The notes beneath the pieces are model-generated. The model was not told where the DNA came from, did no database searches, and was given only the letters and a program-made list of their open reading frames with translations. From the IMG/VR virus record IMGVR_UViG_3300006033_000029, positions 1 through 61,769 of that record: a stretch of DNA of 61,769 nucleotides; one strand, given 5' to 3'. Positions within the stretch are counted from its first letter, which is position 1. The number at the start of each line of letters is the position of its first letter. Of this stretch, positions 12,017 to 25,512 are shown in pieces. The stretch is from a virus (taxonomy: Duplodnaviria > Caudoviricetes). Both the position numbers and the translations under genes were made by a program.

Positions 12017-12261
12017 TGGCCGACCTTGAAGCTGATCTGCGCGCTGCCGCGAGGAACGGCTTCCTTGATCTCAGCCTGCATCGTCGGCCGACCGGCGAAT
12101 GGGAAGCTGCGTATCGCACGACCGACACTCTCGAAGTCTACCGCCACGAGGCGAAGGACATCGTTGAGGCGATCGGCAAGGCGGTGCGCAGCGGCACTCG
12201 AGTCGTAAAGGCCGTCTCACCGCAGCCGAAGCGGCGGCGTGACACGGAGGATCTCGCGTGA
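12016..12261 (+). CDS. Hypothetical protein ending PKRRRDTEDLA
   Basis: Coupled ORF in the operon. Confidence 0.75.
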   Translation: MADLEADLRAAARNGFLDLSLHRRPTGEWEAAYRTTDTLEVYRHEAKDIVEAIGKAVRSGTRVVKAVSPQPKRRRDTEDLA

Positions 12262-12485
12262 TCGACATCTCTTTCGCCTTTGGTGACAAATACCAAGGTG
12301 TCTCCTTCTGGAAAGCCTCGGACGGTCGCGTTCAGTGTAACATCAAGAATAACGGCGGCTTCACCATCGACTACGGCGACACTCCCGAAGAAGCCTGGGA
12401 GAACGCACGGGCTCAGGCCGAGGGACGCAAGGCGCGACCGAGCAGCCCGAAGAAACGCCGCCGCGACACAGAGGATCTGGCATGA
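12258..12485 (+). CDS. Hypothetical protein ending PKKRRRDTEDLA
   Basis: Coupled ORF; GGAGG SD before GTG. Confidence 0.75.
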   Translation: MIDISFAFGDKYQGVSFWKASDGRVQCNIKNNGGFTIDYGDTPEEAWENARAQAEGRKARPSSPKKRRRDTEDLA

Positions 12486-13027
12486 ACCGCCAAGGCACAT
12501 GGATGCAGACCGTCAGCGGGAAGGCTTTCTGGCCGATCGACCCGCGCCCCGAGGAACTGGACATCGGCGACATCGCTCATGCCCTCAGCATGATGTGCCG
12601 CTACGGCGGGCACTGCAGCCGTTTCTACAGTGTCGCCGAGCACAGCGTGCTGATGGCATCCTATGCTCTCGCCAACCACGGCGAAGAGGTAGCGAAGATC
12701 GCTCTGATGCACGATGCGACCGAAGCGTATCTGACAGACGTGATCCGGCCGATCAAGGCGCACCTCTCCAATTACAAGGAGATCGAGGGGCGTCTCTGGC
12801 TTTGCGTCGCCGAGCGTTTCGGTCTGCCGAGGGTAATCCCCGATGAAGTACAGCACCTCGACAACGCGATCCTCCGTGACGAGATGAGCGCGCTGCACAT
12901 GCCGCCGCCGATGGATTGGAACATCCCGTCCGAGGGTCTCGGCGTGCATATCGCTGGCTGGGAGCCGTCACTCGCCAGGTGGGCCTTCCTCGGCATGTAC
13001 TATCGGCTATGGGGTGAGACATGCTGA
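12482..13027 (+). CDS. HD-domain phosphohydrolase (5'-deoxynucleotidase, YfbR/YfdR-like)
   Basis: DIAHALS..CRYGGH, YSVAEHS, LMHDATEAYLTDV. Confidence 0.9.
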   Translation: MNRQGTWMQTVSGKAFWPIDPRPEELDIGDIAHALSMMCRYGGHCSRFYSVAEHSVLMASYALANHGEEVAKIALMHDATEAYLTDVIRPIKAHLSNYKEIEGRLWLCVAERFGLPRVIPDEVQHLDNAILRDEMSALHMPPPMDWNIPSEGLGVHIAGWEPSLARWAFLGMYYRLWGETC

Positions 13028-14316
13028 TCACTCGTCCCTGGGCGCTTTACAACGAGATTGACGAATATGCAGCAGACTGGCTCGAAAACCTCATTCGACT
13101 TGGTGTCATCGCTCCGGGTGTTGTCGATCGCCGAAGCATCGAAGATCTTCGAGGAGATGACCTCCGAGGATTTCGACAGTGCCATTTCTTCGCTGGCATC
13201 GGAGTTTGGAGTTACGCCCTCCGTTGCGCGGGCATCCCGGATGACGCTCCTCTTTGGACGGGAAGCTGCCCCTGCCAACCTTTCAGCGCGGCAGGCAAAG
13301 GAACAGGGATGGATGATGAGCGGCACCTATGGCCTACCTGGTTCCACCTCATCCAGCAGGAACGCCCGCCACGCATCTATGGAGAGCAGGTTGCGAGCAA
13401 GGACGGCCTCGGTTGGCTCGACCTTGTACTCGCTGACATGGAAGCAGAGGACTACTCCATCTGGGCGGTCGATACCTGCTCTGCGGGCAGTGGGGCGCCG
13501 CATATCCGACAGCGGCTCAGGTTCTTCGCCTACGATCTACGATCTTCCACAGGTCGGCTGGAACACACCGGCGATGACCGATCACAAGGGCGGCTACTTG
13601 GGCGGCAGGATGCGCAACGGGGAACTCTCGACGGATCGTCTGGACGTGACAGCGCAGTTGACCGGATGGCCAGCAGTGACGACCATGACGGGCGGTCAGA
13701 CCTCTCGCAGCGGCGACCGGAAGAACGAACCGCTGATGGGCGGGGCAGCGCAGCTTTGCGGATTGCCGACCTGCACGGCGACGGATGCAATCAAGGGCGG
13801 CAACGTCTCACCTCGGCCGGGGATGATGGGTTTGTCGGAAACGGTGCCCTTGGCAGGCTGGCCGACGCCAGCGGTAGCGGACGACAACAACTCCCGATAC
13901 TCGCCAGAAGCGATGGAGCGGGAAGCCGCGCGGGAGAAGAAGGGGTCGAGCCTCGGGACCGCAACCTACATTCAGATGACCCACGACGGCCCGGCCCGAC
14001 TAACGGCTTCTGGCGAGATGCTGATTGGCTCTTCTGCCGGGATGGAAAGTGGAGGCCAGTTGAATCCGGCACATTCCCGCTGGTTGATGGGTCTGCCTTC
14101 CGTATGGGATCAGGCGGCGCCTTTGAAGGCAAGTCGCGGCAAGGGATGCTCAGATGCTACGGAAACGCGGTCGACCTCCAAGCAACGATCGACTTCATCG
14201 AAGCCACTCTCGAACCGGACGTCATTGACGCTTTACGAAGTGGCTCTGATGAGCCTTGCCAATCACCTTTAGAGTTATATACTCGCAGCAGACGTGACAT
14301 CGAGGATCTGGCATGA
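13021..14316 (+). CDS. C5-cytosine DNA methyltransferase, alpha polypeptide (motifs I, IV, VI, VIII, X)
   Basis: [36 protein letters not shown] and C-terminal YGNAV. The middle region is low-information and lacks motif IX. Confidence 0.88.
13058..14272 (+). CDS. C5 methyltransferase beta polypeptide in the +1 frame (TRD-like repeats plus motif IX); true start uncertain, possibly ATG 13313/13316
   Basis: 404 open codons nested in the alpha gene. Modules GWNTP, GWPAV, GLPTC and GWPTP, then [18 protein letters not shown]. Confidence 0.78.
14256..14283 (+). promoter_or_regulatory. Probable internal promoter/operator in the MTase 3' end
   Basis: TTGCCA...TATACT enclosing ATCAC-CTTTAGA-GTTAT. The 15 bp AATCACCTTTAGAGT is identical to 60465-60479. 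Confidence 0.55.
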
Positions 14317-15133: not shown

Positions 15134-15258
15134 TGGTCATCTGTTTCAAGGGGCACATGCTCTGCTTCGCCCAAGACGCCCGGTCGGCAACCCAAGACCT
15201 CGCCTTGGCTCTGCTCAGCGCCATCCAGCAATCCTATCCCGAGAGGCTCGCCAAATGA
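15133..15258 (+). CDS. Hypothetical 41-aa protein
   Basis: Fills the gap exactly, with TGATG and ATGA overlaps. Confidence 0.5.
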   Translation: MVICFKGHMLCFAQDARSATQDLALALLSAIQQSYPERLAK

Positions 15259-16145
15259 CCATCGCCGCCAAAGTGATCGCCCACAGTCGAGCGGACGCGG
15301 GTACGCCCGATCTGATCACGCTGCAACTGCGATACCCGCGTTTCATCCATGCTGAGTTCATGACCCACCGGGTCTTCTCGCGCAACGCCAGCAGCAGCCG
15401 GGCCATCCCGGTCGAGCGGATGATCCGGGACGTGATCGATGATCCGGCGATGCCGGTGCGCTGGGGCGCCAACCAGCCGGGGATGCAGGACGCGGGGGAT
15501 CACGATGCCTTGGTTCTCTGCGGCGCTTCTGTCGCCGAGGTGGATCACTATGGACCATACGTCTCGCCCGATCAGGCGTGGTGCTACGCTCGGGACAAGG
15601 CCGTCGAGATGGCGCGGAACTTCGCCATGGCAGGCTACCACAAGCAGGTCGTGAACCGGCTGCTGGAACCCTTCGGTCACATCAGCGTCGTAGTCACCGC
15701 GACCGAGTGGGATAACTTCTTTGCGCTGCGCTGCCACCCGGATGCCGATCCTACGATGCGGGCGCTGGCTGAGGCGATGCGGGATGCGATTGCCGCTTCG
15801 AAGCCGGAAATCGTTGATGGTGGGTGGAGTTGGCACCTTCCCTATATCACCGAAGAAGATTTGCGATCGGACGTTGTGCAGAGCAAGTTGCAGCCCGAAG
15901 CAAACCGACTGCTGGCCATGATCAGCGCCGCCCGCTGTGCCAGGGTGTCCTACCTGAACCACGACGGCAGCAGCCCTGACATCGACAAGGACCTCGCACT
16001 AGCCAAGAGGCTACTGGAGTCGAAGCATATGTCTCCGTTCGAGCATCAGGCCGAAGCGTGCGCCAACGGCGTCAAGAAGACCTACCTGACCAGCAACCTG
16101 CGCGGCTGGTATCAGTTCCGCAAGATTATCGAGGTCGCAGCATGA
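15255..16145 (+). CDS. thyX: Flavin-dependent thymidylate synthase
   Basis: AEFMTHRVFSRNASSSRAIP, HKQVVNRLLEPF, SAARCARVSY, HMSPFEHQA. Confidence 0.92.
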   Translation: MTIAAKVIAHSRADAGTPDLITLQLRYPRFIHAEFMTHRVFSRNASSSRAIPVERMIRDVIDDPAMPVRWGANQPGMQDAGDHDALVLCGASVAEVDHYGPYVSPDQAWCYARDKAVEMARNFAMAGYHKQVVNRLLEPFGHISVVVTATEWDNFFALRCHPDADPTMRALAEAMRDAIAASKPEIVDGGWSWHLPYITEEDLRSDVVQSKLQPEANRLLAMISAARCARVSYLNHDGSSPDIDKDLALAKRLLESKHMSPFEHQAEACANGVKKTYLTSNLRGWYQFRKIIEVAA

Positions 16146-23214: not shown

Positions 23215-25512
23215 TCATCCTCCATATGACGTACCGTAGTCGTACCCATAGCCGACGCCGATCACGGCAAGAATCGAGTGGCCTTGAATGGATTCGCCTG
23301 CTGATGTCTTGGCGGTCGCCTTGACGAAGCCGCGCGTGAAACTTCCAAACGCAGATGCAGGCAGCGTATATGAGGTGCCCGTAAGCCCGTCGGTTGTGCT
23401 GATGACCATGCCATCTTCGCCGATCACGGTTATCGTTGTCGTCTGCCCCGCTTCCGGAGTAACGCTGGGATCGTTCCATGAGAGCAGAACCGAGTCTTCC
23501 GTGAGACGATTGCGGTTCTTCCATGTCAACGCGAGGCTTGTCGCCCCTATGGCCGTGACAGTGCCATCTTCCACGCCGTTGACGCGGAAGTCGGCCGGGC
23601 GTGTGGGAAGCCAAGGGCGACGGCTTAGAGTGCCGTCCAGATCGGGGGAGTCATCCAGCGCCAGCACACCCAGAGAAGTCATGCTGAGAAGCCTGTATGT
23701 CACCGGCTGATCGCCAACGCGCACCGTGGCGTCGTAGAAGTCGGCGTCGGGGGAAATGAACCAGACCGGCGATCCTGCCGACCAGGCTCTCGGAACCGTA
23801 TCCAGCATTCCTCGCTGCAGCGTGACCGTGTTGAGCCCGATGGCAGTGACGAGGCATATTTCTTGCGAGCCGTCGCCCGTACCTAGCAGAGCGAAGTGCC
23901 CGACGTCGACGCCGTAGCCGCTGGTAGGCACGGTGACAGTTGCAACGCTGGTGGTACCGGAGAACGGCAGCGCCGACACCAGCGACGAACGGCTGAGCAG
24001 ACTCTTCGTCTCGGCACCTTCCCAGACGAGCCCGACGCCGGGCACCGCACCCTCGGACATGATGACGTAGGAGGACACGTCATTGCTCGCGTCAGCGGCC
24101 AGCACACCTGCGATCACATCAGGATCGCTCAGCGAACTGATGTCTTCCCCGGATTGCACGAGGAAATAGTAGGGCAGGGTGATGACCTGAGAGAAGTCCA
24201 GCGGTGAGGGCACTTCGGTCTGAGGCACCCAAGCCGTCGATGGCGGGGTCATGTATGTGCCGACATCGAGCGCGAAGATGTCCTCGGTCAGCGACAGTTT
24301 GACCTTGGAGTCGTTCGTCTTGCCGTAGTCGACCTCTCCGACACGCATGACGATGCCATCCATGCCATGTTCCGGCCAAGTGACTTTCACGCAGTCTCCG
24401 GGCACGACGCGCCAGGCAGAACGGTTCACGATCGCAGTGCAGGACATCAGAGGCGCCGCTGCGACACGCAGATCGCGCTGCGCGAGCCGCATCGCCAAGT
24501 CCTTGTTCCGGACTCCCTTCATGGATTTGGTCTGGCTGACAATCTCCTGGATCGCCATGTTCCCGAGATCCTGAGCGGTGACCGTCTCTTCTTCCTCGTT
24601 CTCGGGGTTTGTCCATGTGACGCTGAGTTCGTTGATTGTCTCGCCCCAAGCCTTGCGCTGGAAGCCCTTCAAATCGGCGTTGTCGGGTGTGATATGAAAG
24701 AGGGTTTCGGGGTCGTAGTCGTCCCTGATCAACTTGATGTCGAACAGTCCTGTCGCAGGATTTACGAAGATCACGCCCTCCACATATTCCAGCATCGAGG
24801 CGATGAAGTCTTCGCCGCTCTGCTGTTCCACCCAAAGGACAGATACTCCGATACCCTCGTTGAAGACGACTTGGGAGACAGCATCGAAGTTCGCGGTGTT
24901 GATGGCACTTGTCGCAATGCCGAGCCCCCAATCGGTGTTGGTCATCACCTCGTAGATGATGTGGATCGGGTTCGCGTCATCACCAACCATCGCGTAGAGC
25001 GAGTTGAGCACTTTCGGAGCCCGTCGCGCTTTAACCCAGACAGCAGGAATGTTCGGTTGGTTGGCGCGCCAATAGAAGCCCTTCTGGCTCGCGATGGTGA
25101 CGTTGGCAAAAGCAGTGGCGAGACCGAGTACGTTGCCGATGATGCCAGTGCCGTATGAGCCAGATGGCCCGCCACTGACATGACCGCTGAAGAATAGAGA
25201 AGCGATGCCGCGATGCGCAGGGCACGTTGCCTCAGTTCGACCCATCTTGTTTGCCAGGTATTCGGGAATCGTCTGCGAAAACCTGCCATCCAAGTATGTG
25301 ACTGCACCTGAGACTCCACCTTCCTTCTTGATACCGCCGAAAAGATCCTGGTTGTCGATCCGGATAACAGCAGACGTGTCCAGATCGCCGCTCCAAATCT
25401 CTTTCTCATCAACGAAGATAGCCTTGATGGCATCGACAGGCCCCGTGGCAAATCCATACCAGAGGGACATGTAATACTGGACGACTTCGATCTTCGGCTT
25501 CTTAGACCCCAC
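23215..25512 (-). CDS. Tail tip / central tail hub protein
   Basis: GPVDAIKAI, DANPIHIIYE, KLIRDDYD, PGDCVKVTWP, LQRGMLDTVP. Confidence 0.85.
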   Translation of the reverse strand: MGSKKPKIEVVQYYMSLWYGFATGPVDAIKAIFVDEKEIWSGDLDTSAVIRIDNQDLFGGIKKEGGVSGAVTYLDGRFSQTIPEYLANKMGRTEATCPAHRGIASLFFSGHVSGGPSGSYGTGIIGNVLGLATAFANVTIASQKGFYWRANQPNIPAVWVKARRAPKVLNSLYAMVGDDANPIHIIYEVMTNTDWGLGIATSAINTANFDAVSQVVFNEGIGVSVLWVEQQSGEDFIASMLEYVEGVIFVNPATGLFDIKLIRDDYDPETLFHITPDNADLKGFQRKAWGETINELSVTWTNPENEEEETVTAQDLGNMAIQEIVSQTKSMKGVRNKDLAMRLAQRDLRVAAAPLMSCTAIVNRSAWRVVPGDCVKVTWPEHGMDGIVMRVGEVDYGKTNDSKVKLSLTEDIFALDVGTYMTPPSTAWVPQTEVPSPLDFSQVITLPYYFLVQSGEDISSLSDPDVIAGVLAADASNDVSSYVIMSEGAVPGVGLVWEGAETKSLLSRSSLVSALPFSGTTSVATVTVPTSGYGVDVGHFALLGTGDGSQEICLVTAIGLNTVTLQRGMLDTVPRAWSAGSPVWFISPDADFYDATVRVGDQPVTYRLLSMTSLGVLALDDSPDLDGTLSRRPWLPTRPADFRVNGVEDGTVTAIGATSLALTWKNRNRLTEDSVLLSWNDPSVTPEAGQTTTITVIGEDGMVISTTDGLTGTSYTLPASAFGSFTRGFVKATAKTSAGESIQGHSILAVIGVGYGYDYGTSYGG

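Follow-up and report, generated by a model that had tools for sequence, protein, structure and literature searches.

A single match to the C5 cytosine methyltransferase family PF00145 is found in the virus record IMGVR_UViG_3300006033_000029, a stretch of 61,769 bases (the window; CheckV completeness about 95%), and the gene that carries it is open in two overlapping frames, both of which behave as coding sequence. Frame 0 encodes the catalytic chain, here called alpha; the +1 frame encodes a second chain, beta, which contains four short tandem repeats (cassettes) and a segment resembling methyltransferase motif IX (Table 1). In nearly all relatives both frames are free of stops even in segments without conservation at the protein level, which two full-length products would explain. 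We consider it likely that the gene specifies a two-subunit C5 methyltransferase working like M.EcoHK31I, with the recognition cassettes on beta and an overlap of 1.1 kb between the two chains. The two-frame layout is conserved across a very large and mostly mis-annotated phage family.

Alpha is readily recognised as a C5 methyltransferase. It matches PF00145 over residues 72–172 (36.4 bits against a cut-off of 22) and phrog_363 (E 2.3e-68), while NCBIfam TIGR00675 scores 21.5 bits, below its cut-off of 100.65. The profile of the alpha family matches residues 71–170 of M.HhaI (E 3e-15). As proposed in a first-pass annotation made from the sequence, frame 0 (431 residues) carries motifs I, IV, VI, VIII and X, and all five could be mapped; the assignments use what we take to be the defining features of these motifs (Pro-Cys for IV, an acidic residue for VI, Q/R-x-R for VIII and GN-x-V for X). 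P84, C85 and Q86, E122, R163 and R165, G59, and Y380, G381 and N382 are invariant in 53 sequences. In a model built from the 53-sequence alignment, residues 1–178 form a Rossmann-like sheet with a predicted local distance difference test score (pLDDT) of about 90, and a Foldseek search with this model returned M.HhaI (2uyc, E 7.5e-8) and M.HaeIII (1dct, E 8e-8) as the top two hits, over ~195 aligned columns. The modelled strand order is 8–11, 33–36, 53–57 (motif I) and 78–83 (before PCQ), so that the first Rossmann strands look permuted relative to M.HhaI. Within residues 1–90 (13021-13290) a motif II/III-like segment, AxYNEID..., is followed by G.VD.RSIEDV, both lying before motif I, and the gap between motif I and PCQ is only about 22 residues.

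Beyond this core, alpha changes character. The same annotation had described the middle of frame 0 as low in information, and residues 176–329 are indeed 64% G/R/D/S/A, modelled as disordered and unconserved across relatives. Residues 181–371 fall below pLDDT 50, and confidence returns (about 80) in a helix at 386–396 after motif X; a Pfam search with the C-terminal segment of alpha found nothing. No folded small (recognition) domain with motif IX is therefore seen on alpha, as residues 181–371 are unconserved and poorly modelled while the core matches M.HhaI and M.HaeIII.

The +1 frame had been noted to be open for 404 codons, in agreement with a listed open reading frame (ORF) of 404 residues at 13058..14272 (+) with a TTG start and a +1 offset relative to alpha. 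The whole open +1 stretch within alpha amounts to 414 codons. Among the 41 window ORFs of at least 250 residues, the longest such stretch in any other is 245 codons, if one ORF that is itself nested is excluded, and the third frame of the methyltransferase gene contains 24 stops. When alpha was re-coded with the codon usage of the remaining window, 6.7 stops were expected in the +1 frame, which was stop-free in 0.06% of 5000 simulations. The proposal that the open +1 frame is due to chance is thus contradicted. The excluded nested ORF, of 270 residues at 24119-24931 (-) with a third-position G+C of 0.40, lies wholly inside a 765-residue ORF at 23215-25512 (-) in a different frame; its open stretch of 285 codons is probably a product of chance.

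The avoidance of stops is more striking across the family. A codon alignment of 60 non-identical relatives was used, and the expected number of stops was obtained by re-coding every relative according to codon usage in the genes that flank it; this replaced synonymous-codon shuffling within each sequence, which is too weak because it retains codons already selected. In the beta frame no stop was observed in columns 47–76 (20.5 expected), 78–110 (4.7 expected), 111–172 (79.0 expected) or 651–716 (33.6 expected), whereas two control stretches of the same frame, upstream in columns 10–46 and in the motif X region, contained 80 and 41 stops against expectations of 75.1 and 38.9. The relatives share ancestry, so that these counts are not independent trials, but the contrast with the control stretches is still sharp. 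Over motifs I–IV, then, the beta frame has no stop where about 25 were expected. Conversely, the alpha frame across the cassettes has no stop in 50 sequences against 247.8 expected, with a mean probability of a stop-free alpha frame of 0.029 per sequence, while the third frame over the cassettes contains 238 stops in 6602 codons. This freedom from stops where the protein sequence is unconstrained is the most telling result of the analysis.

Purifying selection passes along the gene from alpha only, to both frames, to beta only, and again to both. It was followed by mean entropies at alpha codon positions 1, 2 and 3 and by a simplified OLGenie-type estimate of the ratio of non-synonymous to synonymous substitution rates (dN/dS), with a bootstrap over independent pairs (ranges in brackets). 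In columns 10–110 (about alpha residues 9–108, comprising YNEID, motif I and PCQ) the entropies are 0.55/0.47/1.36 and dN/dS is 0.21 (0.18–0.24) for alpha and 1.07 (0.93–1.21) for beta, so that alpha alone is constrained. Columns 111–172 (about residues 108–169, motifs VI–VIII) are constrained in both frames, with entropies of 0.63/0.55/0.87 and ratios of 0.37 (0.31–0.44) for alpha and 0.57 (0.50–0.65) for beta; in many of these columns the conservation of beta, which here reads GSTLY.LTWK..TPSGR...LRAS.RRTS, exceeds that of alpha. The W-P-T-P columns that mark the cassettes are of beta type (1.17/0.54/0.54), and the commonest cassette type gives a dN/dS of 0.21 (0.11–0.30) for beta and 2.04 for alpha, in a small sample of 15 distinct DNAs and 6 pairs. 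Both frames are again constrained before motif X, where the entropies (columns 651–716) are 0.62/0.39/0.46 and the ratios (columns 651–682) 0.54 (0.42–0.71) for alpha and 0.45 (0.36–0.56) for beta. At motif X itself (columns 872–890; 0.75/0.77/1.39) selection is mainly on alpha, with ratios of 0.30 for alpha and 0.73 for beta.

The layout recurs widely. A blastn search found 218 phage records, with hosts that include Escherichia, Klebsiella, Salmonella, Burkholderia, Pseudomonas, Rhodobacter and others; in these matches conservation at the DNA level (70–78%) is limited to query bases of about 28–500 and 980–1089. Phage epsilon15 and Bordetella phage PHB09 contain both ORFs in the same arrangement. 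A beta query retrieved 80 viral loci, and in 74 of these a +1 beta overlaps an alpha that has PCQ and motif X; the remaining six include three loci cut by contig ends (L012, L016 and L045) and two in which both ORFs are present and the motif X pattern failed (L062 and L065). A set less biased towards beta was obtained by fetching 80 loci from bacterial genomes (prophages) with the alpha profile, and an alpha ORF was found in 77 of them. Of these 77 loci, 75 have an open +1 frame across 95% or more of the span from motif I to motif X, and 74 have the motif IX pattern; open stretches have a median length of 318 codons in the +1 frame, compared with 23 in the +2 frame.

At E <=0.001 the beta profile matches 21,465 cluster representatives (clustering at 50% identity), and at E <=1e-30 it matches 8,711. 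Annotation of the two chains is uneven: all of the best 120 alpha-like proteins have PF00145, the named ones being called DNA cytosine methyltransferase, while no descriptive name is given to any of the best 120 beta-like proteins, of which 118 lack a Pfam domain. The majority of records annotate only one of the two ORFs. Both are annotated in Escherichia phage K1H (L084; 1002-1826 and 1090-1782), where beta is called ‘putative Mte8-like protein’, and in Xanthomonas phage PhiXhv-18 (L085; 801-1793 and 883-1788), where each is called ‘DNA methyltransferase’. ‘Mte8-like protein’ was rejected as an identity, being a mere annotation label for the beta ORF in K1H and its relatives, and one beta protein that seemed to stand alone (P0056) was discounted when its locus (L004) proved to have an overlapping alpha. 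In two relatives, P0014 and P0115, the motif IX block of beta is immediately followed by an in-frame insertion of ~170 residues that contains an HNH domain (PF01844); the segment ..AAPLKAS.. that flanks it is present in duplicate, and the insertion, which is absent from the window, resembles that of a homing endonuclease. No published description of the two-frame family was found in a literature search that excluded subscription journals and REBASE.

The beta frame is open from 13028, and its start is most likely the ATG at 13157, reached by internal initiation. None of the 60 relatives has its last upstream +1 stop later than column 46, and stop avoidance begins at column 47; 51 relatives have an ATG at column 45 or 49 (in the window, ATG 13157 is column 49), and the remaining nine have one between columns 9 and 55. 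Alternative starts in the window are TTG 13058, ATG 13067 and ATG 13241. Of these ATG 13067, used by the gene call P0001 to give a beta of 401 residues, and ATG 13241 are possible. Beta matches phrog_31772 (E 9.8e-32) and phrog_1008 (E 6.2e-26), both labelled DNA methyltransferase; searches of Pfam and NCBIfam with beta gave no match, and in the ESM Atlas its family appears in unnamed viral clusters only. The confident part of the beta model is limited to residues 65–113, which form a helix (65–85) and a hairpin (91–113) with pLDDT 66–85.

The cassettes behave as shuffled, non-redundant and position-independent units. Four repeats had been reported in the +1 frame, starting at 13556, 13664, 13760 and 13856, and their starts and spacing of 108, 96 and 96 nt were reproduced exactly; pairwise nucleotide identity among them is 0.59–0.66, and they are therefore not recent DNA duplicates. 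In 160 beta proteins having both anchor motifs there are 1–10 cassettes, mostly 3–4, of 29–50 residues each, so that the number of modules varies among relatives while both frames stay open, as the first-pass annotation had supposed. When the cores of the cassettes were clustered around centroids at 50% identity (single linkage at 45% put everything in one cluster), 181 types were obtained, 40 of them in at least five proteins, with 151 distinct architectures among the 160 proteins. The types of window cassettes 1, 2, 3 and 4 are present in 78, 11, 14 and 1 of the 159 other beta proteins, respectively, with neighbours and positions that vary; the commonest type takes the first position 32 times, a middle position 31 times and the last position 18 times. 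Only 3 of the 160 proteins contain the same type more than once, against 22.9 +/- 3.6 in shuffled sets (0 of 5000 shuffles as low), a contrast that is inflated by the relatedness of the proteins.

Such behaviour is compatible with independent recognition modules. It is a more tentative suggestion that the W-P-T-P cassettes might be autonomous, exchangeable target-recognition modules, that shuffling of these 30–45-residue units might rewire the sites protected by a multispecific methyltransferase, and that each cassette might have evolved to read as a stop-free linker in the alpha frame. If so, the cassettes would constitute a combinatorial library of anti-restriction specificities held in an overprinted frame.

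For the two-subunit enzyme as a whole the following mechanism can be proposed. Alpha would provide the large catalytic domain that binds S-adenosylmethionine, with motifs I, IV, VI and VIII and a motif II/III-like YNEID segment before motif I, and a disordered tether of ~190 residues would link this core to the motif X helix; the tether would exist because the beta frame codes in the same stretch. Beta would be made from the same mRNA by internal initiation, probably at ATG 13157. Its N-terminal tail is unconstrained, and its conserved helix-hairpin, or else the motif IX block, may dock on alpha. The four W-P-T-P cassettes, of 32–43 residues, may contact the target DNA and set specificity. The motif IX-like segment of beta would act as motif IX does in ordinary C5 enzymes, where it organises the recognition (small) domain. 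Translation of beta, assembly of the two chains and specificity set by the cassettes are what we infer.

Several observations weigh against this mechanism. Two of the four window cassettes deviate from W-P-T-P (WPAV and LPTC). A GGAG directly abuts ATG 13157, which is poor spacing for a Shine-Dalgarno sequence, and internal initiation of beta may be of a low level. The segment described as motif IX-like in the first-pass annotation is a pattern, L-N-P-x4-R-W-L-M-G-L-P, near-invariant in beta; its assignment is a match to what we take to be the motif IX consensus, a Pfam search with the segment at E up to 10 gave no methyltransferase signal, and a beta profile found nothing closer among PDB sequences than an unrelated protein at E 0.26. 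The beta model (56 sequences) is poor, with a mean pLDDT of 52, and no fold match among 48,161 chains exceeded Z 4.7, a score reached by the helix-hairpin only. Exceptions to the layout also occur: the alpha frame is interrupted at one of the 80 viral loci (L028), and in Pseudomonas phage PACT201 (L001, 1530-2727) the gene is in pieces, with alternating alpha and beta frames and a fragmented annotation—either a pseudogene (a decayed copy) or an indel error of assembly. Finally, alpha has a conserved segment of 45 residues before motif X, which might be a minimal recognition element, in which case alpha alone would be active.

This last point leads to an explanation that we regard as unlikely though credible, namely that alpha is complete and active by itself, beta being a separate overprinted protein (with a role in regulation, DNA binding or counter-defence, for example) or else a modulator that only adds or changes specificity. 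The pre-motif X segment retained by alpha is under selection, public annotation treats alpha as the whole DNA cytosine methyltransferase, and beta is without detectable similarity of sequence or fold to any target-recognition domain; moreover, overlapping genes co-occur by construction, so that co-occurrence alone is no proof of a shared function. Yet in alpha the place of the small domain of C5 enzymes is taken by about 190 residues that are disordered and unconserved, while the motif IX-like pattern and the sole repeat architecture between motifs VIII and X are both on beta. In addition, M.EcoHK31I, a nested-frame enzyme that has been studied experimentally, needs both of its chains (PMC2836561, PMC3404938).

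The frames could also be joined in a single polypeptide by two programmed frameshifts, a +1 shift following motif VIII and a -1 shift following motif IX, a reading from frame 0 to +1 and back to frame 0 that rebuilds the canonical order of motifs I–VIII, target-recognition domain, IX and X; in the family consensus the first W-P-T-P does stand directly after motif VIII. Such a fusion is improbable, as it needs neither the upstream part of the beta frame nor the alpha frame over the cassettes, both of which are stop-free (about 25 and 248 stops expected), and the beta segment over motifs VI–VIII is under purifying selection and folds confidently. Neither a frameshift fusion nor an untranslated frame explains the freedom from stops in unconserved stretches. 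The idea that the +1 ORF is an untranslated by-product of G+C-rich codon usage has in its favour that the window is about 60% G+C and that another alternative-frame stretch, of 285 codons, exists inside ORF 23215-25512. It can hardly be credited, given a probability of 0.0006 for no +1 stop in the window gene, an open +1 frame in 75 of the 77 relatives retrieved with alpha, whose hosts differ greatly in composition, a beta dN/dS below 1 in three segments and a third frame full of stops.

Table 1. Features of the two-frame methyltransferase gene in the window, with the junction motif at its end
Feature	Position	Strand	Description
Alpha ORF	13021..14316	+	Frame 0, 431 residues, ATG start; C5 cytosine methyltransferase catalytic chain
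Beta ORF	13157..14272	+	+1 frame; 371 residues counted from the family-conserved ATG 13157
Alpha folded core	13021..13554	+	Residues 1-178; AlphaFold2 pLDDT about 90
Alpha YNEID segment	13048-13062	+	Motif position
Alpha motif I, HFFAGIG	13183-13203	+	Motif position
Alpha motif IV, PCQ	13270-13278	+	Motif position
Alpha motif VI, GEQV	13381-13392	+	Motif position
Alpha motif VIII, APHIRQR	13495-13515	+	Motif position
Beta conserved helix and beta-hairpin	13349..13495	+	Overprints alpha motifs VI-VIII; conserved peptide at 13415-13444
Alpha linker	13561..14004	+	About residues 181-328; G/R/D/S-rich, disordered, unconserved, stop-free
Beta cassette 1 (GWNTP/WNTP...)	13556..13663	+	36 residues; commonest ‘DHKGG’ type
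Beta cassette 2 (GWPAV/WPAV...)	13664..13759	+	32 residues
Beta cassette 3 (GLPTC/LPTC...)	13760..13855	+	32 residues
Beta cassette 4 (GWPTP/WPTP...)	13856..13996	+	Variable part about 43 residues
Dual-coded C-terminal block	13997..14110	+	Beta motif IX-like segment 14054-14098; alpha reading 14005-14091
Alpha motif X, YGNAV, then helix	14158-14172	+	Motif position; pLDDT 77-82; alpha-type selection
Gene-junction motif GACATCGAGGATCTGGCATGA	14296..14316	+	Alpha end, GAGGA Shine-Dalgarno-like box, ATG of next gene overlapping the stop

The gene sits in a nucleotide-metabolism module. Its upstream neighbour (12482-13027, +) is a deoxyribonucleoside 5'-monophosphate phosphatase (phrog_318, E 2e-61), and downstream lies a ThyX thymidylate synthase (15255-16145, +; phrog_85, E 7e-80). 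Among ten flanking ORFs tested none matched a restriction enzyme family, and seven were without any match; lacking a restriction-enzyme neighbour, the gene looks like an orphan methyltransferase. By analogy with phage orphan methyltransferases in general it may have an anti-restriction role. A junction of roughly 21 nt, GAYACVGAGGATCTGGCATGA, closes three consecutive-module genes (12241-12261, 12465-12485 and 14296-14316, +), three copies in the window where 0.01 are expected. It encodes the peptide tail ..RRDTEDLA and includes a Shine-Dalgarno-like GAGGA, and the next start overlaps the stop as ATGA, or as GTGA at the 12261 copy. The junction could be a translational-coupling cassette or a recombination sequence at module boundaries.

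If the two-subunit explanation is correct, tens of thousands of phage and prophage genes for ‘DNA cytosine methyltransferase’ lack half of the enzyme in their annotation or have it as ‘hypothetical’, and cloning or predicting the annotated chain alone would mislead work on phage methylation, restriction evasion and defence triggers. To our knowledge a same-strand overlap of about 1.1 kb, conserved and selected on both sides, would be unusually long for double-stranded DNA phages. The gene offers a natural system in which two proteins share one sequence: a new helix-hairpin is overprinted by an old fold and a junk linker by old cassettes, with both constraints in view. Should specificity lie in the cassettes, they would provide a toolkit for programmable cytosine methylation as well as a record of the restriction systems met by phages.

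Among known systems, alpha shares with M.HhaI and M.HaeIII the catalytic fold, motifs IV–VIII, the PCQ cysteine and the GN(A)V of motif X, and differs from them in having no small domain on the same chain and a motif II/III-like segment before motif I. M.SPRI, M.Phi3TI and M.H2I are multispecific C5 enzymes of Bacillus phages, single polypeptides whose target-recognition domains were mapped by genetics; the papers on these methyltransferases are said to be those of Wilke et al. in 1988, Lange et al. in 1991 and Gunthert and Reiners in 1987. Like the window gene they are phage-borne orphans with several short tandem modules between motifs VIII and IX, but the modules of the window gene are on a separate overprinted chain, in another frame than the catalytic motifs. 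The two-chain work on M.EcoHK31I reportedly comes from Lee, Kam and Shaw in 1995.

Two phage systems were considered and rejected as members or parallels. The Dcm of a phage that triggers retron Ec86 (10.1101/2023.08.16.553469) was judged from a related Drexlerviridae phage, Bas01, whose Dcm-like gene has no +1 ORF and other motifs, and the HNH hidden in a methylase of phage ShiLan is a different overlap (PMC11855218). M.AquI (CYCGRG) is a two-polypeptide C5 enzyme whose small chain contains half of the variable region with motifs IX and X (PMC3404938). It resembles the window gene in a natural split in or near the variable region and in two chains that assemble; the passage on it in PMC3404938 mentions no nested frame, and its motif X is on the small chain, rather than on alpha as here.

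The precedent named in the first-pass annotation, M.EcoHK31I from E. coli HK31 (YGGCCR), is well chosen. Its second chain is encoded within the alpha gene in a different frame, activity depends on both chains, and the predicted target-recognition domain is on alpha, beta having motif IX only (PMC2836561, PMC3404938). In the window gene, in contrast, the cassettes and the motif IX-like segment are both on beta, the part of alpha that joins motif VIII to motif X is a disordered tether, and the overlap with beta, of about 1.1 kb, takes in nearly all of the alpha gene; M.EcoHK31I is, besides, part of a restriction-modification system, while the window gene is a phage orphan. The N-terminal pieces of M.EcoHK31I alpha and beta encoded by primers (supplement of PMC2836561), which are fragments only, do not contain the YNEID start, GSTLY..LTWK or W-P-T-P, and these fragments give no sign of close kinship. 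The likeness lies instead in a conserved second ORF nested in the alpha gene in another frame, and it is in this sense that the window gene may work as M.EcoHK31I does.

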